15,313 bases of DNA, from assembly GCA_964481585.1 (NCBI GenBank), contig CAYZVT010000072.1, forward strand, positions 1 through 15,313, written 5' to 3'. Below are positions 1,435 through 15,270 of this stretch, in pieces. The notes under the pieces were generated by a model that was not told where the DNA came from, did no database searches, and saw only the letters and a program-made list of their open reading frames with translations. The translations under genes were made by a program, and so were the position numbers. The number at the start of each line of letters is the position of its first letter. The first letter of the stretch is position 1. This DNA comes from an uncultured Pirellulales bacterium. Lineage in GTDB: Bacteria; Planctomycetota; Planctomycetia; Pirellulales; CAYZVT01.

Positions 1435-1593
1435 CGCGCCGGTTGTAGCAGTGCTGCGGCGTGCCGGCGCCGCCAGCGCGCTCTCAAAAAAAGTTCCGAG
1501 CTTGAGCGGCACGCGCGGGCGGCTGGCAGACAGTAGAGTTTCAGGGTGCCGGACTCTGCGCACCTTCGGCTTAGCAGAAAGAGACGATTGCTC

Positions 1594-3573
1594 ATGGACC
1601 TACGACGGACGCTGCTCGCGCTGGTGCTCGGCTGCGCTTTTGCGTCTTCCGCCGCAGCCGCCGAAGTGACGGACCTGCTCATGGTCGTGCGGAATCCCTC
1701 CTCGCTTACCTCCGGCGAGTCGGCGCGGAAGGCGCTTTTGGAAAGCTGGGGCTACACGGTCACGCTCCTCGACGACCACGCCGCCGCGAGCAGCTTCACC
1801 GCCGCCGCGTCAGATAACGCCGTGGCCTACGTGCCCGCCGAAGTCGATAGCTCGGCGCTGGGGACGAAGCTCAAAGGCGTCTCGATCGGCGTGGTGAGTG
1901 AGTCGGCCGCGCTGAGCGATACCTACGGCTTCGGCCCCGAGCATCTGCAGGATAAATCGGAAATCGAGATCACCAACAGCAGCCACTACATCACGCACAC
2001 TTGGAGCGTGGGGGCGGCCGTCACGGTCGTCAGTTCCAGTCAGCAGCTGTTGGGCATCAACTACGGCTTGCCCTCCGGCGCGGTGAGCTTGGCCGAGCGG
2101 CACCGAGCCGGGCCGCATTACAAGCCGGCGCTCGTCCTGCTCGAAAAAGGGATCGCCATTTACGGCGGCGGCACGGCCGCAGGCCGCCGGGCACTGCTCC
2201 CCTGGGGCACGACCACGTTCAATTTCTCCGCGCTCAACAGTAATGGTCAGACGATTCTCGCCCGCACGCTCCAGTGGGCTGCCCGGCCGATGCCGTCGCT
2301 CGGCAAGCTCCTGCTGGTCGTCCGCGACACCAGTAACCTCACGAGCGAGGAGCAGGAGCGGCGCTGGATGCTCGACCTGTGGGGCTACGACGTAACGACA
2401 ATCGACGAGGGCGCCACGCAGACGAGCTTCGATAGCGCCGTCGCCACGCACGATGTCGTCTACGTCTCCGGCCAAGTCTCCGCCTCGCTCGTCGGGCCGA
2501 AGCTCAAAAGCCAGCCAATCGGCATTGTGAGCGAACACCCGGCCTTAATCCCGGAACTCGGGCTGGCCTCTAGCTACTCGCTCACTAGCGGCAGTTCGCT
2601 CAGTCTCGCGGCGCTCGATCACTTCCTCACCGCGCCGCTGATGCCGGGGCCGGTGTCGCTCTTTTCGAGCAGCGCGTCGGTCACGGTCGTTGGCCCCACG
2701 CGCTCGAAACATCTGCAACTGCTCGGCGGCTGGGGACTGCAAGAAACCCTTCCCGTGCTCGAAGTCGGCGGCGCATGGCATGACGAGCTAGGCACTGCGC
2801 CCGGCCGTCGCGCCGTGCTCCCCTGGAACGGCGGCAGCGTCGCGGCCGACGCGCTCACGCCCGAAGCCAAACTCCTCACCCGCCGCGCGCTGCGCTGGGC
2901 GACCGGCATGGTCGGCTATTGGAAGCTGGACGAAAGCTCCGGCACGCTTGCCACCGACTCCTCAACCTTCGGCCATCACGGCACGCTCGACGGCACCACC
3001 TTCGATGAAAGCACCGTGAGCAAAGCCCGCGTCGATGCCGGCCTGACCTTCGATGGCTTTGACGACCGCATCCTCGTTGCCGATACCGCCGCACTGCGAC
3101 TGACCGAGGCGCTCACGCTCTCGGCGTGGGTGCGGGCCAGTAGCCTCCCCACCGGGTCGAGTGTCGCCAGTGTAATCCGCAAAGGAGACGCCAACTCGTC
3201 GAGCTATCAGCTCGGCATCCGTGGCGGGCGAGCCGTGTTTTTTCTCGACGCGCTCGACACCGCCGGGTTCGCCGGGGCAAGTGAACTCGACACCGGCCGT
3301 TGGTATCACCTGGCCGCCACTTGGGACGGCACGACCGCGCGGCTCTACGTGAACGGCGTGCTCGACACGTCGCCGTCGCTCTTTTCCGCGCCGTTGGCCC
3401 TCGACACCCGGCCGCTGTGGCTCGGCGGCACGTCCACCGGCGACCACTTTGCCGGCAGGCTCGACGAGCTGCGGATCTACGACCACGCGCTGGGCGAAGC
3501 GGAGATCAGCGGCTTGTGGAACCAGAGCCGCCCGCTCGGCGTGCGGGTCTTGCACTGGCAGGAAATCCGCTGA
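1594..3573 (+). CDS. secreted LamG (concanavalin-A-like lectin/glucanase, Laminin_G_3-type) domain protein with internal tandem duplication
   Basis: ATG at 1594 (MDLRRTLLALVLGCAFASSAAAAEV) gives a signal peptide with an RR motif; the ORF-track start at 1546 is a GTG. Purine-rich AGAAAGAGA lies 10-18 nt upstream. Two homologous modules of about 230 aa are present (DLLMVVRNPSSLTSGE...WGYTVTLLDD...KLKGVSIGVVSE versus KLLLVVRDTSNLTSEE...WGYDVTTIDE...KLKSQPIGIVSE, each ending RRALLPWG / RRAVLPWNG). The C-terminal 200 aa (GYWKLDESSG...HGTLDG...LTFDGFDDRI...LTLSAWV...WYHLAATWDGTTARLYVNGVL...GRLDELRIYDHALGEAEI) matches the LamG-like jelly-roll signature. Confidence 0.8.
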   Translation: MDLRRTLLALVLGCAFASSAAAAEVTDLLMVVRNPSSLTSGESARKALLESWGYTVTLLDDHAAASSFTAAASDNAVAYVPAEVDSSALGTKLKGVSIGVVSESAALSDTYGFGPEHLQDKSEIEITNSSHYITHTWSVGAAVTVVSSSQQLLGINYGLPSGAVSLAERHRAGPHYKPALVLLEKGIAIYGGGTAAGRRALLPWGTTTFNFSALNSNGQTILARTLQWAARPMPSLGKLLLVVRDTSNLTSEEQERRWMLDLWGYDVTTIDEGATQTSFDSAVATHDVVYVSGQVSASLVGPKLKSQPIGIVSEHPALIPELGLASSYSLTSGSSLSLAALDHFLTAPLMPGPVSLFSSSASVTVVGPTRSKHLQLLGGWGLQETLPVLEVGGAWHDELGTAPGRRAVLPWNGGSVAADALTPEAKLLTRRALRWATGMVGYWKLDESSGTLATDSSTFGHHGTLDGTTFDESTVSKARVDAGLTFDGFDDRILVADTAALRLTEALTLSAWVRASSLPTGSSVASVIRKGDANSSSYQLGIRGGRAVFFLDALDTAGFAGASELDTGRWYHLAATWDGTTARLYVNGVLDTSPSLFSAPLALDTRPLWLGGTSTGDHFAGRLDELRIYDHALGEAEISGLWNQSRPLGVRVLHWQEIR

Positions 3574-3707: not shown

Positions 3708-4781
3708 ATGGCCTATTCTGTGCTCAGCCCGTACCTTGTGCCGGCCGGATCAAAGAAGCGGGTCAACCTCGGCGATGGGTTCATTCTGCACAACATCCAG
3801 CGGCTGCTTGCTCCGCACGAGTGCCGGTTCGTCTTCACGACCCGCGCGCCGCTGAGCGAGCGACAGATCGAGTGCATCAACGACACCGACGCGCTGATTC
3901 TGGCCGGGGCGAACCAGCTCGACGATCACTTTACGCTCTACCCGACTTGCACGGCTGCCGATCTCGCGCGAATCAAAGTGCCGATCGTTCCCTTCGGCAT
4001 TGGCATCAATGGCGAGCCGGACACGGCGCGAAAAATGAGCGACGCGACGCGGGCCGTGCTCGCAGCCATTTTTGAACGGGTCCGCTATACGTCGTGGCGC
4101 TGCGACGACTCGCGGCAGTATCTCGTCGATCAAATGCCCCGGCACGCCGAGCAATGTCTCATGACCGGCTGCCCGGTCCAATACCGCGACGAAATCCTCG
4201 CCCAAACGCCCTTCCAGACGAGCGAAGCCACGGTGGTCGCCACGATCACCGAGCGGGGCGATTTTTGGGAGCGGGAAAAAACCACGCTCGACTTCCTCGC
4301 CGAGCGCTTCGCCCGCTCGCGCCGTATTCTCGCGCTCCACCAAGATTTCACTTCCAGCGGTCGCCGCCCCGGCGCGATGCGGCGGCTCGCAACTTCGCTC
4401 AAACCCCACGCGCCGCAGCGGCTGCACGATTACGCGCGCGCCCTGGGCTTTGAAGTCTACCGGCCCGCCTCGGCCGAGGAATGTTTGGCCGTCTACGCCA
4501 AGTGCGACTTGCACCTGGGCAGCCGGCTGCATGCCCATCTGCACTTCCTCAGCCGCGCCAAGCGCTCCTTCCTCACTCCGGTCGACGGCCGCAGCGCCGG
4601 CTTTGCCCGCACGTTCGGCTTTCCGCTCTGCGACTACCGCCGCCTCGATGCGCATTTTGATTACGACTTTGAGCGCTACGCCCGCCGCGTCCGCGAAACG
4701 TTCGCCACGATGACCGCCTTCACCGATTACCTGAAGCGCGACGTGCTCCGCACGCCGGCCGCGATGATTAGGGCAGCGTAG
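3708..4781 (+). CDS. polysaccharide pyruvyl transferase family protein (CsaB/WcaK-like)
   Basis: ATG at 3708, stop TAG at 4779-4781. The N-terminal motif KKRVNLGDGFILHNIQRLL resembles the G-x-NxGDeai signature. The C-terminal CDLHLGSRLHAHLHFLSRAKRSFLTPVDGRSAGFARTFGFP resembles the RLHa-I-A...P-i-Y-K motif of PS_pyruv_trans. The match is from memory of the family pattern, not a search. Confidence 0.6.
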   Translation: MAYSVLSPYLVPAGSKKRVNLGDGFILHNIQRLLAPHECRFVFTTRAPLSERQIECINDTDALILAGANQLDDHFTLYPTCTAADLARIKVPIVPFGIGINGEPDTARKMSDATRAVLAAIFERVRYTSWRCDDSRQYLVDQMPRHAEQCLMTGCPVQYRDEILAQTPFQTSEATVVATITERGDFWEREKTTLDFLAERFARSRRILALHQDFTSSGRRPGAMRRLATSLKPHAPQRLHDYARALGFEVYRPASAEECLAVYAKCDLHLGSRLHAHLHFLSRAKRSFLTPVDGRSAGFARTFGFPLCDYRRLDAHFDYDFERYARRVRETFATMTAFTDYLKRDVLRTPAAMIRAA

Positions 4782-4968: not shown

Positions 4969-5640
4969 TTAGCGGTGGCTCGTCACTCCCACTTGCCGGC
5001 ACATGTCGAGCACGGGGCAGGTCGAGCATTTGGGCTGGCGGCCGGTGCAGACGTGCTTGCCGAACGGGACGAGTAGCCGGTTGATCTCGATCCAGTACGC
5101 GCGCGGCAGTTTTTCATCGAGGGCGTGCATCGTCTTCTCGGGAGTCGAGGCCGAGATGTAGCCCCAGCGATTCGTGACGCGGTGGACGTGGATATCGACG
5201 CCGATGCTCGGCTCTCCGCAGGCGATACCGAGCACCAGATGGGCACACTTCGGACCCACGCCCCGGAAGGAGAGCAACACCTGCTCGTCGCACGGCACGG
5301 TGCCGCCGAACTCCCCGACCGCGCGACGGGCAATCTCCCGAATCTGCCCCGCCTTCGCCTCGTGAAACGAGCACGCCCCAATCAGCCGATCAATCCGCCG
5401 CTCCGACAGCTTCGCCACCTCCGCCGGCGTCCGCGCCACCTCAACCAGCGCCCGCGCCGTCGGCACCGTCACCTCGTCCCGCGTGCGAATCGAAATCATG
5501 CACGCCACGAGCTGCTCAAACGCCGAATCAAACCCCTCGGCCGCCAATTCAAACAGCGCCGCCTTCGGAAACGGCCGAACCGCCGCGCGGATTCGCTTCA
5601 GCGCCGCATCAATATCAAACCGCCGCTTCCGAGCGGGCAT
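4969..5640 (-). CDS. nth: endonuclease III (HhH-GPD base-excision DNA glycosylase with 4Fe-4S cluster)
   Basis: ATG at 5640. A helix-hairpin-helix GPD region (LLSFRGVGPKCAHLVL) is present. The C-terminal Cys cluster CTGRQPKCSTCPVLDMC fits C-x6-C-x2-C-x5-C of EndoIII/MutY. The length of 223 aa is typical for Nth. Confidence 0.9.
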   Translation of the reverse strand: MPARKRRFDIDAALKRIRAAVRPFPKAALFELAAEGFDSAFEQLVACMISIRTRDEVTVPTARALVEVARTPAEVAKLSERRIDRLIGACSFHEAKAGQIREIARRAVGEFGGTVPCDEQVLLSFRGVGPKCAHLVLGIACGEPSIGVDIHVHRVTNRWGYISASTPEKTMHALDEKLPRAYWIEINRLLVPFGKHVCTGRQPKCSTCPVLDMCRQVGVTSHR

Positions 5641-6459: not shown

Positions 6460-8130
6460 TTAGCTCGTTTCTTCCTTTGCTTCGTGCGGTTGTTCGACCG
6501 GCTTGACGACTTGGCTCGGTTCGACAACGCGGGGTGCGACCGGGGCGGCGCCGTTTTCTTTGGCGGCTGGGGCCTCGCCGTCGCCGCCGATTTTGACGAG
6601 CGACTCGGGCAGTTCCACGCCGCCGATGTCCTTGAGCACTTGCATCATCGGCGGCATCGTGCCGGCCATGTTTTGCAGGAAGTTGGCGGTTGAGGACTTG
6701 CCGTTGGAGTTGCCTTCCCAGACGACGACCTTGTCGAACTTGATGTTCGAAATCGCCTTGGCGCTGGCTTCGGCCAGGTTGTCGAGGTGTTCGAGCATGA
6801 GCAGTTGGAACGCCTCTTTCGCGCCGCCGCAGGCGGTGATGATCTGCTGGAGACCTTCGCCCTTCTTGGCGAGAATTTCGTATTGGCCGCGAGCTTCGGC
6901 TTCGAGCTTGGCGAAAATCGCTTTCGCCTCGCCTTCGGCTTCGATGCGGCGGCTTTCGGCGGCGGCTTCGGCTTCGACCAAGGTGCGTGCCTTTTGGGCT
7001 TTGGCCGGAGCTTCCAGTTCCGCCCGCTGCTCGGCTTCGACCCGTTCGGCCTCGGCCAGCGCGGCTTTGGCCATGGCGCGGTTTTGGGCTTCGAGCACGG
7101 CCGCTTCCGCTTCGCGCTTGCGGCGTTCGCCGATTTCGTAAGCCTCGGCTTTTTTCACGAGCAACTGCGCCTGCGAAGCGGCGATGACCGCCTGGGCCTC
7201 GTTTTCGCCTTCGATGGCGAGGGCGTCGGCATCGGCCAGCCGGATGCGCATCTTCTGTTCGGCGTCTTTCACCTGCGCATCGCGCTCGAAGGCGGCCGTC
7301 TGCTCGCCGACGCTCTGTTCTTTTTCCAGTTCCGCGATCCGCACCGCCTGTTCGCGCTCGGCTTCGCGGGTGCCGATGTCGCGGAGCTTGTTGGCGTTGG
7401 CGACTTGAATCGCGCGGTCGCGGTCGGCCTCGGCCACGCGCGTCTCGCCCATCCGCTCCTGTTCGGCCACGTCGCCCCGCGCCTGCTGCACGGCCTGGCT
7501 GGCGGCTTTCTTGCCGATCGCGTCGATATAGCCCGACTCGTCGGTGATGTCGGTGATGTTGACGTTAATCAGCACCAGACCGATCTTTTTCAGTTCCGGC
7601 TCAAGCGAGTTTTGAATGTGTTCGAGGAACGTGTCACGGTCGCGGTTGATGTCTTCGATCCGCATCGAGGCGATGACCTGCCGCAGTTGGCCGAAGATGA
7701 TTTCCTCGGCTTGCTTGCGGATCTCGTCGGTCGTCAGCCCCAGCAGACGAATCGCCGCGTTCTGCATCACGTCGGGGCTGGTGCCAATTGCCACGGTAAA
7801 GACGCTCGGCACGTTGACGCGGATGTTTTCCGCCGACAGCGCGCCGCGCAGCGGAATCTCGATCTGGATCGGCTCCAGACTGAGGTAGGCGTAGTCCTGA
7901 ACCAGCGGCACGATGAACCGCGCGCCGCCATGCACGCAGCGGGCCGTGTTCTGACCGCCGATCTTGCCGTAGATGATGAGCACGCGGTTGCTCGGGCAGC
8001 GCTTGTAGCGCGACGTGAGCAAACGCAGCACGCTGCCGATCAGGATCGCGGCCACGACGAGAATAATCGCCCAGTAAACCAGACCGCCAGCGAGGTCTGA
8101 GACGAGATCGGCAACGAGTAAATTAAGCAT
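6460..8130 (-). CDS. flotillin / SPFH (band-7) domain protein, YqiK/FloT-like
   Basis: ATG at 8130 (MLNLLVADLVS...). The ORF-track start at 8172 is a GTG and would overlap the upstream gene by 50 nt. An N-terminal TM helix is followed by an SPFH core and a long Glu/Ala-rich coiled coil (AEAERVEAEQRAELEAPAKAQKARTLVEAEAAAESRRIEAEGEAKA), typical of flotillins. The start overlaps the stop of the upstream NfeD-like gene (ATGCTTAA). Confidence 0.9.
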   Translation of the reverse strand: MLNLLVADLVSDLAGGLVYWAIILVVAAILIGSVLRLLTSRYKRCPSNRVLIIYGKIGGQNTARCVHGGARFIVPLVQDYAYLSLEPIQIEIPLRGALSAENIRVNVPSVFTVAIGTSPDVMQNAAIRLLGLTTDEIRKQAEEIIFGQLRQVIASMRIEDINRDRDTFLEHIQNSLEPELKKIGLVLINVNITDITDESGYIDAIGKKAASQAVQQARGDVAEQERMGETRVAEADRDRAIQVANANKLRDIGTREAEREQAVRIAELEKEQSVGEQTAAFERDAQVKDAEQKMRIRLADADALAIEGENEAQAVIAASQAQLLVKKAEAYEIGERRKREAEAAVLEAQNRAMAKAALAEAERVEAEQRAELEAPAKAQKARTLVEAEAAAESRRIEAEGEAKAIFAKLEAEARGQYEILAKKGEGLQQIITACGGAKEAFQLLMLEHLDNLAEASAKAISNIKFDKVVVWEGNSNGKSSTANFLQNMAGTMPPMMQVLKDIGGVELPESLVKIGGDGEAPAAKENGAAPVAPRVVEPSQVVKPVEQPHEAKEETS

Positions 8131-8698
8131 GGGTGGTCCCCGCGGTTTCAGGTGCAGGCTCGACTTCCACACGGTCAGGCCCGAGCACCCCTACGACAAG
8201 AATACGACTTCCCGTTGGCAAACGTCCTCCGGACGTAATCGCTTCGCACTCGACGAGCCGGTTTTGCAAGGTGAGATGAACCTTGCCGGCTCCCTTTTGC
8301 TCGGCGGGAATCGGCACATAGACGACCCCCTCGAGGCCGACCGCGCGGGCGAGCCGCACGGTGCCATCGGCGTTGAGCTGGTGCATCGCCTGCATCAAAA
8401 AGTAGACGCCATACATCGCTCCCAACGCGCCGGCCACGGCCACGAATAGCGGCCACGGATCGTCGAAGTTGGAAGCCAGCGCCGCTTTGCCGAACAGCCC
8501 AAAGAACGTCAGACCGATCACGAGCGTGCGGAACGACAGCACGCCAAAGATCCAGCTGGAGCCGTGATGGTCGACGTCGCCTGTGTCGGCGGCCGCGTCG
8601 AGATCGCCGTCGGCCGTTTCGTCGTCGCCGCCGATGAGCGACTGCACCAGCAACAGCGCGCCGCCGAAGAGGGCACAGAGCAGAAACAGCGTGTTCAT
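8123..8698 (-). CDS. NfeD-like / YqiJ-family membrane protein (flotillin partner)
   Basis: ATG at 8698. Hydrophobic N-terminal half with several TM segments, an acidic stretch (GGDDETADGDLDAAADTGDVDHH) and a C-terminal soluble beta-rich domain (GAGKVHLTLQNRLVECEAITSGGRLPTGSRILVVGV...) consistent with the NfeD OB-fold. It sits immediately upstream of and overlaps the flotillin gene, the conserved yqiJ-yqiK arrangement. Confidence 0.8.
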   Translation of the reverse strand: MNTLFLLCALFGGALLLVQSLIGGDDETADGDLDAAADTGDVDHHGSSWIFGVLSFRTLVIGLTFFGLFGKAALASNFDDPWPLFVAVAGALGAMYGVYFLMQAMHQLNADGTVRLARAVGLEGVVYVPIPAEQKGAGKVHLTLQNRLVECEAITSGGRLPTGSRILVVGVLGPDRVEVEPAPETAGTTHA

Positions 8699-10088: not shown

Positions 10089-11537
10089 TTAAGCCTGGGC
10101 GGTGGCGGTGAGCTTGGCGAGCGCTTCGCGCAGTTGCCGCAGCTTGATCGGCATGGTGGCGACCAAGCGGTGCCCGTTGCTCTGGGCGCTCGACTTCCAG
10201 TTGCGCTGGCGTTCGCTCAGCAGCAGCAGCGCGGGCACGTTTTTGAGATCGTTCCGCTGCCCAAAATCGTTGAAGGCCTCGACCGCGCTTTCGCCGAGCA
10301 TGCCGCTGCTAAAGAGCACCACGTCGGCCACTTGGCTATCGTCGGCAAAGCGCTGGGCGGCGCGCTGCGGATCGCTCGTGACGAGCACGCGATAGCCGCT
10401 CTTTTTGAGGCTGTCGCGAAAGAGGTTTTGCATCTTCACGTCGCCTTCGACGACCATCACCGTGCGCTGCTGGCTGTTGTCGCCCTTCAAGGCGCCTTCG
10501 CCCGCCTCTTCGGCGGCGCTTTCGCGCGCGAGCACGCCGCGCAGATCGGTCGCCAACTCGCCCGGCGTCTGATAGCGGCGGTCGGGATCGAAGCTGAGCG
10601 CCTTTTTGACGACCAGGGCAATCGAGTGCGGCAGATCCGGCTTGACCTGCAAGATCGGCGGGATTTCGCGGAAGCGGCTTTTGCGCAGCCGCTGCGAGCG
10701 CTCCCGCGTCTCGACCAACGGCGCTTGCCCGGTGAGCATGTGGTAGTAGATGCAGCCGGCGAAAAAGATGTCGCTACGGGCATCGCCTTTACGCACGCCG
10801 GTCGAGCGTTCCAGTCCGGCGTAGTCGATCGCGCGGGGGTTGTCGCTCTTTTGGATTACCTCGTCCGTCGCGTTCAGATCGGTGCCGGCCAAGCCGAAAT
10901 CGACCAGCTTCGCCTGCCCGAGGCTGGAAACGAGCACGTTCGACATTTTTAGGTCGCGGTGCGAGATGCCCCGGCCGAAAGCGTAGTCAAGTCCGCCGGC
11001 GATATCGAGCATCAGCCGCGTCGCTTCGAGTGGCTCGCAGCTTTTGCGGATGCGGACGAATTCGAGCAGATTGCGCCCCTCGACGAACTCCATGACCAGG
11101 TAATGGTTGTTCCCCTGCGAATCGACTTCGTAGATCGGGACGATGTTCGGATGCCGCAAGCCCTGGCACATCACCCCTTCGCGGTGGAAGCGGTCGGCTT
11201 CTTCTTTGAGTTCGCTGTAGCGTTTGCGAAGTACCTTGACGGCGACTTGTTTCTTGCCGAGCCGGTCGGTGGCCCGGTAGACGCGCGCAAAGGTGCCGGT
11301 GCCCACGAGATAGAGAACTTTGTAGTCCCCGTAGTAGAACGTGGTGCGGTCGCGGGCAATCAGATGCTCGATCTGGTAGAAGGTGAGCAAGTCGCGGCGG
11401 AGGAGCAACTGGCGGAACTCGTCCAGGCTGACGTTCTGGCTGCCGAACTCGCCCCAGATCTCGCGGAGCTGCGTCTCGTCGAGCAGATTCAGGTTCAGCG
11501 CATGCTGAGCCAGTTCCTCTGCTGACGTAATGGCCAT
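10089..11537 (-). CDS. Ser/Thr protein kinase (Hanks type) fused to a C-terminal receiver-like (pseudo-REC) domain
   Basis: ATG at 11537 (MAITSAEEL...) is preceded by AGGGAG 4 nt upstream; an alternative ATG lies at 11558. Kinase motifs are present: VGTGTFARV (G-loop), VAVK, HRDLKMSNVLV, DFGLA, SDIFFAGCIYYHMLTG, DPDRRYQT. The C-terminal 120 aa (TVMVVEGDVKMQNLF...YRVLVTSD...ADVVLFSSGMLGE...VPALLLLSERQ...MPIKL) has the REC topology, with the conserved T/S and K present. The phospho-acceptor Asp is replaced by Ser (VLFSSGM where VLLDxxMP is expected). Confidence 0.85.
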   Translation of the reverse strand: MAITSAEELAQHALNLNLLDETQLREIWGEFGSQNVSLDEFRQLLLRRDLLTFYQIEHLIARDRTTFYYGDYKVLYLVGTGTFARVYRATDRLGKKQVAVKVLRKRYSELKEEADRFHREGVMCQGLRHPNIVPIYEVDSQGNNHYLVMEFVEGRNLLEFVRIRKSCEPLEATRLMLDIAGGLDYAFGRGISHRDLKMSNVLVSSLGQAKLVDFGLAGTDLNATDEVIQKSDNPRAIDYAGLERSTGVRKGDARSDIFFAGCIYYHMLTGQAPLVETRERSQRLRKSRFREIPPILQVKPDLPHSIALVVKKALSFDPDRRYQTPGELATDLRGVLARESAAEEAGEGALKGDNSQQRTVMVVEGDVKMQNLFRDSLKKSGYRVLVTSDPQRAAQRFADDSQVADVVLFSSGMLGESAVEAFNDFGQRNDLKNVPALLLLSERQRNWKSSAQSNGHRLVATMPIKLRQLREALAKLTATAQA

Positions 11538-11547
11538 GGGACTCCCT
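11538..11547 (-). promoter_or_regulatory. AGGGAGTCCC immediately 5' of the kinase ATG (11537)
   Basis: Reverse complement of the plus strand GGGACTCCCT. Same 10-mer as 12556-12565. Confidence 0.45.
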
Positions 11548-11701
11548 TTACGAATCATTTTTCCGATTTGCCTGCTCCCCTAGATCGTATCCCGGATGCT
11601 CATCGAGAGAAGTTCGCCGCGTACTTGTTAATTTATTCCGGCGGCGCGCCGGCCACAATTGATTCGCCGAGCCGGGGGGCGAGATTGCCCAGCCGGGCGG
11701 C

Positions 11702-11865: not shown

Positions 11866-12153
11866 TTACGCCTCGTATTCTTCGAGCTTTTGGCGGTAGT
11901 CGTCGCGCTCGCGGCGGGTCGCTTCCAGGTCGAACATGAGATACTTCATGTCGAGCCGCAACTGGCCGAGCGCATCTTGCACCAGCGTCAGAATCCGCCG
12001 CCGCCGCTGCGTGCTCTCCGCCACCCGATCCACCAGCGGTTCGAGCGAGTCGCGGTATTGAGCCGGCAGGGCCGCGATCGCCGCTTGCAGGCGGAGGAAG
12101 TCGGCGGGCAGTTGTTCTTGAGCGGTCGGGGCAGGACGCGAGGTGTCGTTCAT
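11866..12153 (-). CDS. small hypothetical protein, predicted coiled coil (95 aa; possible N-terminal extension to 12228)
   Basis: The ATG at 12153 is preceded by GGAGAA 9-14 nt upstream. An alternative upstream ATG at 12228 is preceded by AAGGG. The C-terminal half is charged and helical (LDMKYLMFDLEATRRERDDYRQKLEEYEA). No recognisable family. Confidence 0.45.
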   Translation of the reverse strand: MNDTSRPAPTAQEQLPADFLRLQAAIAALPAQYRDSLEPLVDRVAESTQRRRRILTLVQDALGQLRLDMKYLMFDLEATRRERDDYRQKLEEYEA

Positions 12154-12470: not shown

Positions 12471-12537
12471 ATAGCCGGCGAGCAACGCTTGCCGGTGCGC
12501 GGCGGTGTTGAACCGGCGAGCGTTGCTCGCCGGCTAT
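12471..12537 (+). promoter_or_regulatory. 19-bp perfect inverted repeat (ATAGCCGGCGAGCAACGCT ... AGCGTTGCTCGCCGGCTAT) with a 29-nt spacer; leader hairpin or operator upstream of the large secreted-protein gene
   Basis: Read directly. The spacer contains a further GCCGGT/ACCGGC pairing. It ends 19 nt before the AGGGAG ribosome-binding site at 12556 and overlaps the alternative GTG/TTG start candidates at 12505-12525. Confidence 0.5.
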
Positions 12538-12555
12538 CCCCCTTCCGTCCTTCGC

Positions 12556-12565
12556 AGGGAGTCCC
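12556..12565 (+). promoter_or_regulatory. AGGGAGTCCC (Shine-Dalgarno-like plus conserved spacer) before TTG 12568
   Basis: The identical 10-mer, read on the minus strand, abuts the kinase ATG (plus-strand 11538-11547). Confidence 0.45.
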
Positions 12566-12567
12566 GA

Positions 12568-15270
12568 TTGTCACGCGGTCGCTGCCCGTGGGTGCTGACG
12601 GTTCTGGCCGTGCTTTTCAGCGGCGGCGTGCTGCATGCGCAGTCCACGTTTCGCGAGGATTTTGAGGGGCCGGCGGCAAGCTGGAGCGTGGTGAGCAGCG
12701 ATGCCGCCTACCGCATCGCCGCTCAAAACCGCGTCCGGCAAGGAGCCTACTCGGGCGAGGCCTGTGAGCAGGTGCAACTGCTCGGCAACAACGGCTCGTT
12801 TGTTTATCTGGGGCATCCGATTCGCCGGGCACGGGTGATCCGCGAACTCGCGCCGAGCCTGTGGCTCAAGGCCGACCGGCCGGGGCTGCAAGTCTTTGCC
12901 CGTGCCGTGCTGCCGCGCACGGAAGACCCCCGCACCGGCAAGCCCGTCACCACGCTGCTGCCGGGCGACCGTTATCTCCAGCCGGGCCAGTGGCAACCGC
13001 TCGCGGTCCGCGACGTGCCGGGGCTGCTCGCCCGCCAAGTGCGCGTGCTGCGCAGCGAACTTGGCCCGCAGGTCGATCCGCGCGAGGCGTACATCGACCA
13101 ACTCCTGGTCAACATCTACGGCGGTCCCGGGCTGACAACGGTCTCGATCGACCGGCTCGAAGTGGCCGGCGTCGTCGAGCCGCAGCCCGGCGCGCACGCC
13201 TATCTGGCTGCCGCCTATGGGCAGCCCGCCACACAAAGCACCTTTAACGCGCCGGTCCGCCAGGTGCAGTTGCAAGGCGCGCTGCTCACGGTCGATGGCC
13301 GGCCCGTACTGCCGCGGATCATTCAGCATCGCGGCGAGCCGCTCGATGAATTGGCGCGGCTCGGCTTCAACGTCGTGCAACTCGCCGAGCCTGCCACCGC
13401 CGCGCTGCTGGCCGAAGCGCGGCGGCTGGGCATCTGGCTCATCGCTCCGCCGCCGAGCGTGGCGCAGCTGGAGCAAGCCGCGATCACGCCCCAGTACGAT
13501 GTGGTCATCGCTTGGAGTCTCGGCAGCCATTTGACGGGCGAGGATCTCCAGCGGGTGCGCGCGTTGGCCCGCGCGCTGCGCCGCCACGATCCGCGCGCCG
13601 GGCGTCCGCTGGTGGCCGACTGCCATTCCGATTTGCGCAGCTACAGCCGCATCGCGGACGTGCTGATCTTGGGGGGCAGCCCGATCGGTACGAGTTTGCA
13701 ACTGAGCGACTACCCGCAGTGGCTCACCGAGCGGACGCAGTTCGCGCGGCCCGGCACGCCGATTTGGTGCCGTATCCAAACCGACTACGATCCCGGCCTC
13801 ACCGCGCAGTGGCGCACGTTCGCCGGCGCGCCGGTGAGCGCGGCGCTCGACAGCGAGCAGATTCGCTTTCTCGTGTACGCTTCGCTCGCCGCCGGCGCGC
13901 GGGGCTTTGTGTTCGATTCGCACCGGCCGCTCAACACTTCCGATGCGACGACGGCCGAGCGGCGGCTGGCGCTGGAGATTGCCAACCTCGATCTGCGGCT
14001 CATCGAGCCGTGGGCCACGGGCGGCAGCACGCGCACCTCGGCGCATGCTTCCGATCCGAACGTGAGCGGCGCGATGATTCAAACCGAGCGGGCGCGGCTG
14101 CTCCTGCCGCTGTCGGCTTACCCGGACGATCAGTTCGTGCCGAACCGCCCCCCGGCCGGGCCGCTGGCGTTTGTCGTGCCGGGCGTGCCGGAGTCGAACA
14201 ACGCGTACGCACTCACGCCCGCGAGTTTGCCGCCGCTGCGGCATCAGCGCGTCACGGGCGGGATTCGCGTCACCCAAGAGCGCACCGATTCCAGTTCCAT
14301 GCTGCTCATGACGAGCGATGCCCACGTCATTAGCAGTTTGACCCGCGAAATCGCGCAGACGCGCCGCCGCGCGGCGGAACTCAAACGGCAGCAGGCGATG
14401 CAGCAGTTCGCCGCCGTGGAGCAAGTCCACCGGCGGCTCACCCCCGGCACGGTTGTCGCCGTGCAGTGCGACCGCTGGCTGGAAGAAGCGCGGGCGAGTC
14501 TTGCGCAGTGCCAAGTGCTTTGGGCGGCGAGCGATTTTTCCGGCGTCTACCGCGAGGCGCGGCGCACGCTCGGCGCGCTGGGCCGCGTGCAGCGGGCGCG
14601 CTGGAACGAATCGGTGGCGACGTGGCCGGCGAAGATCACCAGCCCGTTCTCGGTCACGTATGCCACGCTCCCGTACCACGCCCAGTTCGCCGACCGGCTG
14701 CGGCAGAGTCGCGTGCTGCCGTCGCGGCTGCCGGCGGGCGACATGGAGCGGCTCGACGAAATGCTCGCCGCCGGCTGGAAGCATGTCGAGCATCCCGTTC
14801 CCGGCGTGAGCACGAAGGTGGAGTTGTCGGTCAGTGAACCGCACAGCGGGCGCACCGCGCTGCGGCTGGCCGTGTGGCCGCACGAGGCGGAACAAGCCGT
14901 CACGGCTGTCGAAACCGCGCCCGTCTGGATCACGACCCCGCCGGTGACGCTCGAAGCGGGGCAATTGGTCCGCATTCGCGGCTGGGTCCGCGTCCCCCAG
15001 CCGATCACCGGCAGCCGCGACGGGCTGCTGATCGTCGATTCACTCAGCGGTCCGGCCTTGGCCCAGCGGGTGCGCGAAACGTCCGGCTGGCAAGAGTTCA
15101 CGCTCTACCGCTTCGCCCCCGAGTCCGGCCCGCTCATCGTCACCTTCGCTCTGACCGGCTTGGGCGAAGTCTATCTCGATGATCTCAGCATCGAGCCAAT
15201 CGAGCGCGCCGCGCGAGGTGCTGCCGCGCAAGCGCAGCGCCGACTCGCACCACGACTGCCGCAGCGCTAG
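12568..15270 (+). CDS. large secreted protein (about 900 aa) with N- and C-terminal CBM-like / galactose-binding-like jelly-roll regions flanking a possible glycoside-hydrolase-like core
   Basis: The ORF has no in-frame ATG near its 5' end. Candidate starts are GTG 12505, TTG 12508/12523 and TTG 12568. The TTG at 12568 is preferred because AGGGAG (12556-12561) lies 6 nt upstream and gives a clean signal peptide (LSRGRCPWVLTVLAVLFSGGVLHAQS). The N-terminal region (STFREDFEGPAASWSVV...GAYSGEACEQVQL) and C-terminal region (GWVRVPQPITGSRDGLLIVDS...IVTFALTGLGEVYLDDLSIEPIE) look like carbohydrate-binding beta-sandwiches. The middle (LARLGFNVVQLAEP...RRLGIWLIAPPP) weakly resembles a TIM-barrel glycoside-hydrolase-like fold. 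Stop TAG at 15268-15270. Confidence 0.7.
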   Translation: MSRGRCPWVLTVLAVLFSGGVLHAQSTFREDFEGPAASWSVVSSDAAYRIAAQNRVRQGAYSGEACEQVQLLGNNGSFVYLGHPIRRARVIRELAPSLWLKADRPGLQVFARAVLPRTEDPRTGKPVTTLLPGDRYLQPGQWQPLAVRDVPGLLARQVRVLRSELGPQVDPREAYIDQLLVNIYGGPGLTTVSIDRLEVAGVVEPQPGAHAYLAAAYGQPATQSTFNAPVRQVQLQGALLTVDGRPVLPRIIQHRGEPLDELARLGFNVVQLAEPATAALLAEARRLGIWLIAPPPSVAQLEQAAITPQYDVVIAWSLGSHLTGEDLQRVRALARALRRHDPRAGRPLVADCHSDLRSYSRIADVLILGGSPIGTSLQLSDYPQWLTERTQFARPGTPIWCRIQTDYDPGLTAQWRTFAGAPVSAALDSEQIRFLVYASLAAGARGFVFDSHRPLNTSDATTAERRLALEIANLDLRLIEPWATGGSTRTSAHASDPNVSGAMIQTERARLLLPLSAYPDDQFVPNRPPAGPLAFVVPGVPESNNAYALTPASLPPLRHQRVTGGIRVTQERTDSSSMLLMTSDAHVISSLTREIAQTRRRAAELKRQQAMQQFAAVEQVHRRLTPGTVVAVQCDRWLEEARASLAQCQVLWAASDFSGVYREARRTLGALGRVQRARWNESVATWPAKITSPFSVTYATLPYHAQFADRLRQSRVLPSRLPAGDMERLDEMLAAGWKHVEHPVPGVSTKVELSVSEPHSGRTALRLAVWPHEAEQAVTAVETAPVWITTPPVTLEAGQLVRIRGWVRVPQPITGSRDGLLIVDSLSGPALAQRVRETSGWQEFTLYRFAPESGPLIVTFALTGLGEVYLDDLSIEPIERAARGAAAQAQRRLAPRLPQR

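Follow-up and report, generated by a model that had tools for sequence, protein, structure and literature searches.

The window, by which we mean the whole stretch of 15,313 nucleotides that was analysed, carries on its minus strand a gene for a protein that joins a Ser/Thr kinase domain of the Hanks type to a C-terminal domain with a receiver fold. A short gene lies directly upstream in the same orientation, followed by a long divergent gene. The features that concern us are as follows, with residues numbered from the first ATG of the kinase gene.

10089..11558, minus strand: kinase/pseudo-receiver ORF, 489 aa from the first ATG, stop codon at 10089..10091 (ORF list)
11349..11531, minus strand: N-terminal four-helix domain, about residues 10-70 (AF2 model, homologue conservation)
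10569..11324, minus strand: Hanks-type Ser/Thr kinase domain, residues 79-330 (Pfam Pkinase, Foldseek, motif residues)
10464..10565, minus strand: long post-kinase helix (332-354), then a variable linker modelled with low confidence (355-365) (AF2, alignment columns)
10095..10463, minus strand: aspartate-less pseudo-receiver domain, residues 366-488, (beta-alpha)5 fold
10443..10448, minus strand: codons of Glu371 (DD1, acid kept) and Gly372 (DD2, lost) (alignments, family columns)
10308..10310, minus strand: Ser417 codon, phospho-acceptor (D) position (alignments, DSSP, column counts)
10218..10220, minus strand: Leu447 codon, conserved Thr/Ser (T) position (RR468 profile alignment, family column)
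10152..10154, minus strand: Met469 codon, conserved Lys (K) position (alignments, family column)
11866..12153, minus strand: upstream co-oriented gene for a 95-aa protein with a nearly invariant core (ESTKRRRRILTLVQDALGQLRLDMKYLMFDLEATRRERD) (synteny, column conservation)
12505..15270, plus strand: divergent gene for a 921-aa protein with a hydrophobic N-terminus (tblastn, gene calls in loci L001 and L002)

The two ORFs downstream of the kinase gene match no Pfam or NCBIfam family, and a search of Rfam over the window returned no RNA family.

An earlier note on this DNA had placed the kinase gene at 10089-11537. There is indeed a single minus-strand ORF, in which position 11537 corresponds to a start at Met8, but the first ATG extends the frame to 11558. 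Judged from the sequence context, Met8 is probably the true start, which would yield a protein of 482 aa. NCBI protein P0001, which is 482 aa long and 100% identical, begins at this residue, an AAGGGAG Shine-Dalgarno-like motif lies upstream of the 11537 start, and Met8 is the first residue of the homologue consensus. The sequence strings quoted in the note (VAVK, HRDLKMSN, DFG, VVEGD, VVLFSSGM, LLLLSERQ and MPIKL) are all present. The protein begins with a compact domain of four helices (13-22, 28-38, 45-54 and 60-67; AF2 pLDDT about 95) that is conserved among homologues. This domain has no Pfam match, and a comparison of the N-terminal 73 aa with PDB sequences gave chance-level matches only.

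The domain that follows scores 142.3 bits against the Pfam Pkinase profile (PF00069; cut-off 31.7, E 2.5e-41, residues 79-330), and its model superposes on PknB (Foldseek, 6i2p_A: E 4.9e-21, target TM 0.82) with a bilobal kinase fold. A codon check located the catalytic residues K108, E127, H200-R201-D202, K204, N207 and D220-F221-G222, and hence the complete set of kinase motifs described earlier (K108, D202, N207 and D220) is confirmed. These motif residues are invariant in 120 homologues. Likewise, the K/E/HRD/N/DFG set is kept in 147 of 147 full-length members, bar three conservative substitutions, irrespective of the residue at the acceptor position of the tail, such that members with Asn, Cys or Gly at that position also have a fully intact kinase. 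From these motifs, the protein is a Hanks-type Ser/Thr kinase with predicted phosphotransfer activity. It resembles PknB-like kinases in carrying the complete catalytic motif set, and its kinase domain superposes on PknB, PknA and Stk1, to which it is 26-31% identical. In contrast to these enzymes, the present protein has no transmembrane segment and no PASTA domains, its activation segment closes with an invariant D-Y-A-G-L-E rather than with APE, and its catalytic loop reads HRDLKMSN. The kinase domain is followed by the long helix and by a linker whose pLDDT falls below 50 at residues 355-361 in the AF2 model and whose columns vary among homologues.

The C-terminal domain adopts an intact (beta-alpha)5 CheY-like fold in the domain model (pLDDT 94), and the receiver topology that had been proposed for it was thus borne out. 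The domain covers the whole of the Pfam Response_reg profile (PF00072), although with a score of 19.5 bits (E 1.2e-3) that falls below the curated cut-off of 30.2; correspondingly, PF00072 is listed for none of the 120 homologues in precomputed Pfam annotations. Single-sequence and profile alignments both place Ser417 opposite the acceptor Asp of 5t3y and D53 of RR468. The acceptor column, whose residue the note had asked to confirm, holds Ser417 and no Asp. Ser417 is the final residue of beta3: DSSP assigns a strand to residues 413-417 and a helix to 418-421 in the models, and the helix starts at 418 in both AF2 models.

Other assignments made earlier for the active site did not hold. The Ser of LLLSERQ had been taken for the conserved Ser/Thr, but when the profile is aligned to RR468, without gaps, Leu447 falls at the T position (family column L95 V33 I7), and Ser448 is the T+1 residue, where the family has Gly or Asp. 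Similarly, the Lys of MPIKL is Lys472, three residues beyond the K position (K+3), which is occupied by Met469 (family column M87 L27) and followed by the near-invariant Pro470. The EGD string was only in part an acidic pocket: Glu371 is DD1 and retains the acid, but Gly372 is DD2 (Ser in most of the family) and Asp373 is DD+1, outside the acid-pocket positions. The aromatic switch position, K-3, is Val. With T as Leu447 and K as Met469, the tail therefore lacks four of the five residues of a receiver active site, through replacement of DD2 with Gly or Ser, D with Ser, T with Leu and K with Met. The codons of Glu371, Gly372, Ser417, Leu447 and Met469 were checked at the coordinates listed above. 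Of what a canonical receiver requires, the fold is present, whereas the acceptor Asp, the acidic DD pair and the conserved Thr/Ser and Lys are absent. By the definitions in PMC12632262 and PMC4395418, which call for receiver homology or fold without the D residue or any other member of the quintet, we class the tail as an aspartate-less receiver, or pseudo-receiver. It is incapable of aspartyl phosphotransfer, as had been concluded from the acceptor Ser, and the loss of DD2, T and K adds to the case.

Two possible substitutes for the missing residues were considered and rejected. A nearby replacement Asp, such as Asp55 of FrzS, was discarded when no Asp was found at D+1 to D+5. Lys472 might have stood in as a phosphate-binding Lys, but the residue at K+3 does not co-vary specifically with Ser/Thr at the acceptor position, because Lys or Arg is also found there in the Gly and Cys forms. 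A change to Thr or Ser at K+3 is confined to the Asn clade, and from the distribution of residues we regard it as a clade signature rather than a functional coupling.

The earlier note had asked whether homologues keep Ser or Thr at the acceptor column, and the outcome of this survey speaks largely against a switch. Ser is found in 89% of 120 close homologues (S107 N10 C3), but a set of 150 diverse representatives, taken by clustering at 50%, shows a mixture (S70 N28 C23 G14 T8 D3 R2). An intermediate picture emerges from 82 loci, nearly all of them syntenic (S61 N13 C4 T4). At least six state changes are needed at this column on a rough NJ tree, and its conservation ranks 64th of 127 by entropy, which is the median. 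The near-invariant positions of the tail lie elsewhere (Q377, R381, P470, L392, G388, E371, R390 and Y389, and likewise R399 and R403). Comparison of orthologues thus indicates that a phosphorylatable residue is not conserved at the acceptor site. Ser or Thr is present in about 52% of the diverse representatives and in about 79% of the 82 loci, and therefore a phospho-site specific to certain clades is possible.

A structural role for Ser417 is suggested by its position. Since a helix begins directly after residue 417, the S/N/C/G/T spectrum at this column fits a helix N-cap, for which S, T, N, D and G are reportedly the classical residues. Cys falls outside this classical set, and the reading therefore does not account for all the observed states. 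Even so, on the evidence of the models and the alignments, Ser417 looks like a structural residue, a predicted helix N-cap, rather than a new phosphorylation switch.

The swap of Asp for Ser had been described as one that could not be placed in any known family, but it is covered by the work of Maule et al. (2015), who reported that Ser is the third commonest substitution in aspartate-less receivers, that these domains are enriched beside Ser/Thr kinase modules, and that the Pkinase~Response_reg architecture with such receivers occurs in Planctomycetes (PMC4395418). The same authors also speculated that Ser/Thr/Tyr forms might be phosphorylated on Ser or Thr at the former Asp site (PMC4395418). 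All three elements, receivers with Ser for Asp, their association with Ser/Thr kinases and the suggestion of phospho-Ser, have therefore been in print since 2015. More generally, pseudo-receivers commonly work by contacting other proteins, by dimerising or by binding ligands (PMC12632262).

Our preferred reading, to which we assign a probability of roughly 60%, is that the protein is a cytoplasmic Hanks-type kinase whose C-terminal aspartate-less pseudo-receiver no longer works by phosphorylation of the old active site. The tail would instead be a fixed interaction or regulatory module of the kinase that acts independently of phosphorylation. We favor a model in which it could keep the catalytic domain under control, by analogy with ShkA, a histidine kinase that is bound at its core and inhibited by its own pseudo-receiver (PMC12632262), although it might alternatively serve in kinase dimerisation or in the recruitment of a partner. 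Ser417 would be retained not to accept phosphate, but presumably because it caps the short helix directly after beta3. The working surface would comprise the conserved Arg-rich alpha1-beta2-alpha2 face (Q377, R381, Y389, R390, R399 and R403), and a second part of it may be the remodelled loop face (E371, G422 and M469-P470). If gene order is a guide, the most likely partner or substrate would be the product of the adjacent upstream gene, the nearly invariant protein of 95 aa.

The earlier note had proposed that Ser417 is a target of the attached kinase and, once phosphorylated, serves as a switch or docking output, an idea that Maule et al. (2015) had raised for aspartate-less receivers with Ser, Thr or Tyr. 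The reaction would take place in cis or in trans and would leave a stable phospho-Ser. We consider this very unlikely. Ser does sit exactly at the acceptor position in this protein and in 89% of its closest homologues, but the column drifts, with only median conservation, and positional orthologues carry Asn, Cys or Gly there while their kinases stay intact regardless. The T+1 residue is small (Ser here, Gly or Asp in the family), which in true receivers gives access to the site (PMC12632262). With Leu at T, Met at K, no DD2 and no metal site, nothing is left to hold a phosphoryl group. The residues of Y-T coupling are also missing, as Leu stands at T and Val at K-3, and the basic residue that is common at K+3, which might seem to compensate, is kept equally as Lys in Gly and Cys forms. 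Furthermore, a Ser at the strand/helix junction of a folded domain is expected to be a poor substrate for Hanks kinases, because these enzymes bind extended peptides. A narrower version would confine the event to the clades that bear Ser or Thr, including the present genome, in which the kinase would phosphorylate its own pseudo-receiver and a stable phospho-Ser at the helix N-terminus would replace the labile acyl-phosphate trigger, the step having been lost or bypassed in Asn, Cys and Gly clades. We give this version equally little credence, but if phosphorylation of Ser417 did occur, the protein would be a one-protein analogue of a two-component system.

A different possibility is that the pseudo-receiver senses a small molecule, with a cyclic dinucleotide or an anionic metabolite on the Arg-rich alpha1-beta2-alpha2 face freeing or activating the kinase. 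A review from 2025 in J Bacteriol describes this surface as a region of pseudo-receiver-specific covariation and ligand contact, and also ties the beta3-alpha3 region to ligand binding (PMC12632262). Q377, R381, R390, R399 and R403 are near-invariant, and canonical receivers are acidic or neutral at the positions of R390 and R399 in the RR468 alignment, but a conserved basic patch would suit an interface for a protein or phospho-protein equally well. Activation of ShkA by c-di-GMP offers a precedent, although on a different surface (alpha4-beta5-alpha5), and the tail resembles known ligand-binding pseudo-receivers, in sequence and in structure, no further than in the general fold. We therefore hold a sensor of this kind to be unlikely. 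Another candidate function was suggested by a match that runs end to end, over residues 8-486, on positions 1-485 of the 496 in the PADLOC model PDLC04055 (E 2.1e-181), as if the gene were a single-gene anti-phage kinase of the PD-T4-6 type. This we judge highly improbable. The PD-T4-6 models of PADLOC are known to flag housekeeping Hanks kinases as well, and in S. thermophilus they do so in every genome, for a kinase that carries PASTA-like modules (PMC11514479). The 95-aa and 921-aa neighbour proteins have no PADLOC match, and the gene occupies one conserved chromosomal locus with two neighbours that are constant in 77-79 of 82 Pirellulales species, a pattern that indicates a vertically inherited core gene rather than a defence island. 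Least of all do we credit the notion that the tail is what remains of a receiver in decay and has no function. The loss of four of five catalytic residues and the Pfam score under the cut-off might be read in this way, but conservation already contradicts it: identity across the order is about 50-60%, 16 columns are invariant among 26 sequences, and 125 species representatives retain the domain, which is also modelled with a pLDDT of 94.

An interaction or regulatory role for the tail, as we prefer, can be set beside several known systems. Pseudo-receivers in general share with the present tail a receiver fold without the acceptor Asp and other residues of the quintet, but in this family the T and K positions are the hydrophobic residues Leu and Met instead of the commoner Ala and Arg (PMC12632262), and the beta3-alpha3 loop is modelled as a helix. 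The FrzS receiver from Myxococcus xanthus (PDB 2gkg) is among the best PDB matches to the tail in both sequence and fold. Its D residue is Ala, DD2 is Ser and T is Gly, and it functions independently of phosphorylation (PMC1974792); it is reported to bind neither Mg2+ nor BeF3 and to act through protein contacts (PMC1974792; PMC9811614). Like the present family, FrzS thus combines Ser at DD2 with a small, non-acidic residue at D (Ala53). Unlike the present protein, with K as Met and K-3 as Val, FrzS retains both the conserved Lys and the switch Tyr, and its receiver is fused to a coiled coil rather than to a kinase. ShkA from Caulobacter crescentus offers a parallel in arrangement, because its pseudo-receiver (REC1) lies within the kinase polypeptide and regulates the kinase by binding the catalytic core. 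However, ShkA is a hybrid histidine kinase whose pseudo-receiver binds c-di-GMP on alpha4-beta5-alpha5, and for the present protein the docking of the tail on the kinase is a working model. Fungal kinases of the Rim15p type have the same domain order, a Ser/Thr kinase and then a C-terminal aspartate-less receiver, but Rim15p is a eukaryotic Greatwall-like kinase with a D position that is usually Glu, and we see no sign that the two fusions share descent.

The kinase/pseudo-receiver family extends across Pirellulales, with at least 125 species and 373 representatives at E<=1e-10, and the pseudo-receiver lies C-terminal to a Pkinase domain in all 10 long representatives scanned. Because the family falls below the PF00072 cut-off, Pfam-based censuses probably miss it, and would therefore underestimate both the number of pseudo-receivers and the extent of their association with Ser/Thr kinases. 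A literature search on Ser/Thr kinases with receiver domains in Planctomycetes gave no matching papers. If our reading is right, the protein is an unremarkable member of the aspartate-less pseudo-receivers, a class already known, and comparison with its relatives argues clearly, within one large family, against a phospho-Ser role.

The gene neighbourhood is similarly constant. In 79 of 82 loci the gene for the 95-aa protein precedes the kinase gene in the same orientation, and divergent tblastn matches to the 921-aa protein are found in 77 of the 82. Neither protein belongs to a Pfam or NCBIfam family, and a PDB sequence search with the 95-aa protein gave chance-level matches only. The smaller protein corresponds to NCBI protein P0271 and has 6022 homologues, some of which are labelled ‘transcriptional regulator’. 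By gene order, it is a likely candidate for a functional partner of the kinase. To our knowledge, almost nothing of Ser/Thr signalling in Planctomycetes has been characterised. The kinase, the 95-aa protein and the 921-aa protein form a conserved gene trio that offers a tractable entry to this subject, and a cultured host exists in Bythopirellula polymerisocia Pla144.

The kinase and its C-terminal tail are encoded by a single minus-strand open reading frame that yields 489 amino acids when read from its first ATG, and residue numbers here are counted from that codon. Judging from the sequence, however, this ATG at 11558 is probably not the start, because a Shine-Dalgarno-like AAGGGAG motif immediately precedes the ATG at 11537 (Met8) and the consensus of the homologue alignment begins at the same residue. 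Position 11537, where the earlier note had ended the gene, is also the start of the corresponding NCBI protein (P0001; 482 aa, 100% identical to the query protein). Pfam recognizes a Pkinase domain at residues 79-330 (E 2.5e-41) and, at residues 367-480, a weak match to Response_reg that spans profile positions 1-110 of 111 (E 1.2e-3) and scores 19.5 bits, below the curated cut-off of 30.2.

Features of the kinase/pseudo-receiver gene
10089..11558, minus strand: whole open reading frame
11538..11558, minus strand: stretch from the first in-frame ATG, probably not translated
11349..11531, minus strand: N-terminal four-helix domain (residues about 10-70), confidently modeled, ahead of the kinase
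10806..10901, minus strand: atypical activation segment (residues 220-251)

As far as its motifs and predicted structure can indicate, the kinase domain is an active-looking Hanks kinase. No variation is seen across 120 full-length homologues at K108, E127, H200-R201-D202, K204, N207 and D220-F221-G222, and the catalytic loop reads HRDLKMSN. The AlphaFold2 model of the protein (mean pLDDT 91.9, pTM 0.71) superposes in Foldseek on Mycobacterium tuberculosis PknB (E 4.9e-21, target TM 0.82, 31% identity), although the query protein lacks the transmembrane and PASTA parts of the PknB type. In place of the usual APE end, the activation segment carries invariant N240, R242, D245-Y246-A247, L249 and E250 (PNPRxIDYAGLE), and position 243, Thr in the family consensus, is Ala in the query. 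The four-helix domain is kept in all homologues with T59 and Q62 invariant, and it matches no family in Pfam or in a PDB sequence search.

The tail has a receiver fold. We mapped its residues by a single-sequence alignment to PDB receivers and by a 26-sequence profile alignment to RR468 and FrzS, which agree with each other and are ungapped around the key receiver positions.

Receiver active-site positions in the tail
DD1: Glu371, acid kept
DD2: Gly372, Ser in most family members
D (acceptor): Ser417, aligned with RR468 Asp53 in both alignments and the final residue of beta3 in both models
T: Leu447, with Ser448 at T+1
K: Met469, followed by conserved Pro470, with Lys472 at K+3
K-3 (switch): Val466, aromatic absent

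Of the five active-site residues, four are lost, two of them to hydrophobic replacements, and the Y-T coupling pair is missing as well; the metal site and the side chains that hold the phosphoryl group are therefore absent. By definition, the tail is an aspartate-less receiver, or pseudo-receiver, as the earlier note had read it. All the sequence strings quoted in that note are found in the open reading frame, and its placement of a Ser at the acceptor position stands. Its statement that the domain retains the conserved Ser/Thr and Lys does not, since the residues it took for them are displaced by one and three positions, respectively.

The note had further proposed that the attached kinase phosphorylates this Ser as a switch or docking output. 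Such phosphorylation at the former Asp site was raised as a possibility by Maule et al. 2015 (PMC4395418), but the variability of the acceptor column speaks against it. Among the 120 best hits (about 480-530 aa, 53-72% identical, all from Pirellulales-type Planctomycetes), this column holds Ser in 107, Asn in 10 and Cys in 3. When 1.84 billion cluster representatives were searched with a profile built from the tail, 1279 proteins were recovered at E<=1e-3, of which 373 reach E<=1e-10, and the best 150 carry S70, N28, C23, G14, T8, D3, R2, L1 and Q1 at this column. By entropy the column ranks 64th of 127 in conservation, far behind Q377, R381, P470, L392, G388, F429, E371, V391, R390, Y389, R399 and R403, and a rough neighbor-joining tree with Fitch parsimony requires at least six state changes. 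Across 82 loci (80 from a species-representative scan plus two further homologous loci, L001 and L002), the residue is Ser in 61, Asn in 13, Cys in 4 and Thr in 4. Members with Asn or Cys there are positional orthologues, because the same upstream gene is common to the loci, three cut by contig ends aside. Whichever residue is present, the catalytic motif set of the kinase is complete in all 147 full-length members, three conservative substitutions aside. We also rejected the idea that Lys472 tracks Ser/Thr at the acceptor, as Gly and Cys forms likewise retain Lys or Arg, and Thr/Ser occurs there only in the Asn clade.

A structural role may better explain the preference at residue 417. Canonical receivers have a gamma-turn loop at this place and Pro at D+4 (PMC12632262), whereas this family has Leu at D+4. 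The two models agree on a short helix (418-421) that begins right after beta3 and breaks at near-invariant Gly422 ahead of alpha3, which would make residue 417 a helix N-cap. Classical N-cap residues are Ser, Asn, Thr, Gly and Asp, and the acceptor-column spectrum would fit this role, Cys excepted.

Nor is the Asp-to-Ser swap without a place in described families, as had been supposed. In Helicobacter pylori HP1021, too, Ser occupies the acceptor position, and the protein works without being phosphorylated at that site. Maule et al. 2015 reported Ser as the third most common acceptor-site substitution, with Ser, Thr and Tyr together making up 12% of aspartate-less domains, found such receivers enriched beside Ser/Thr kinase modules, and recorded the Pkinase~Response_reg architecture in Planctomycetes (PMC4395418); the phospho-Ser hypothesis is likewise not new. 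What is new, if modest, is a large family, present across the order, whose receiver domain goes unlabeled in Pfam, together with an unusually thorough hydrophobic remodeling of the active site and a constant set of gene partners.

By analogy with described pseudo-receivers, we consider it reasonably probable (roughly 0.6) that the tail serves the kinase as an interaction or regulatory module independent of phosphorylation. Its working surface would comprise the Arg-rich alpha1-beta2-alpha2 face plus the remodeled loop face, with Ser417 playing a structural part. In ShkA the pseudo-receiver binds to the kinase core of the same protein and inhibits it, and many pseudo-receivers dimerize without phosphorylation (PMC12632262). 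FrzS, with Ala at D, Ser at DD2 and Gly at T, acts via protein contacts (PMC1974792).

The kinase gene keeps constant company on its upstream side, and no conservation of downstream genes is seen across the loci.

Neighboring genes
11866..12153, minus strand: 95-aa protein (P0271), directly upstream of the kinase gene
12505..15270, plus strand: 921-aa protein, divergent from this pair, with a hydrophobic, signal-like N-terminus
1546..3573, plus strand: Laminin_G_3 protein (Pfam)
3708..4781, plus strand: polysaccharide pyruvyl transferase (Pfam)
4969..5640, minus strand: endonuclease III-like HhH-GPD protein (Pfam)
6460..8172, minus strand: SPFH/Band_7 protein, 570 aa (Pfam)

The 95-aa gene precedes the kinase gene in 79 of the 82 loci; two of the remaining three end at a contig edge and one has only about 680 bases upstream. 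Judged by gene order alone, its product is the most likely candidate for a partner or substrate of the kinase. Residues 46-84 (ESTKRRRRILTLVQDALGQLRLDMKYLMFDLEATRRERD) are almost invariant among 120 clusters, and conserved S47, T48 and T79 could, speculatively, be kinase targets. Some NCBI records name the protein 'transcriptional regulator', and it has no match in Pfam, NCBIfam or PDB. The 921-aa gene, also without a family match, keeps its divergent position in 77 of the 82 loci. Of the four other genes listed, synteny with the kinase was checked for the Band_7 gene, which shows none in other genomes.

Along its full length the protein also hits PADLOC model PDLC04055 ('PD-T4-6'), at E 2.1e-181. 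We take this label to be database over-reach, because the gene belongs to the syntenic core and PD-T4-6 is also what the housekeeping kinase of every Streptococcus thermophilus genome is called (PMC11514479). This housekeeping-like family apparently supplied the sequences behind the model, and the model would yield false defense-system calls in Planctomycetes.

In all ten long representatives scanned, the tail is preceded by a Pkinase domain. Among the long members P0234, P0245, P0201, P0207 and P0225, two have a second kinase domain beyond the pseudo-receiver, and three are extended at the C-terminus by 500-750 aa in which Pfam finds nothing. The species-representative scan places the family in 125 species, including the cultured Bythopirellula polymerisocia Pla144, and all are Pirellulales-type Planctomycetes except one bin labeled as an uncultured Granulosicoccus sp., a gammaproteobacterium (L043). 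This bin has the same three-gene arrangement and probably reflects misbinning, not transfer.
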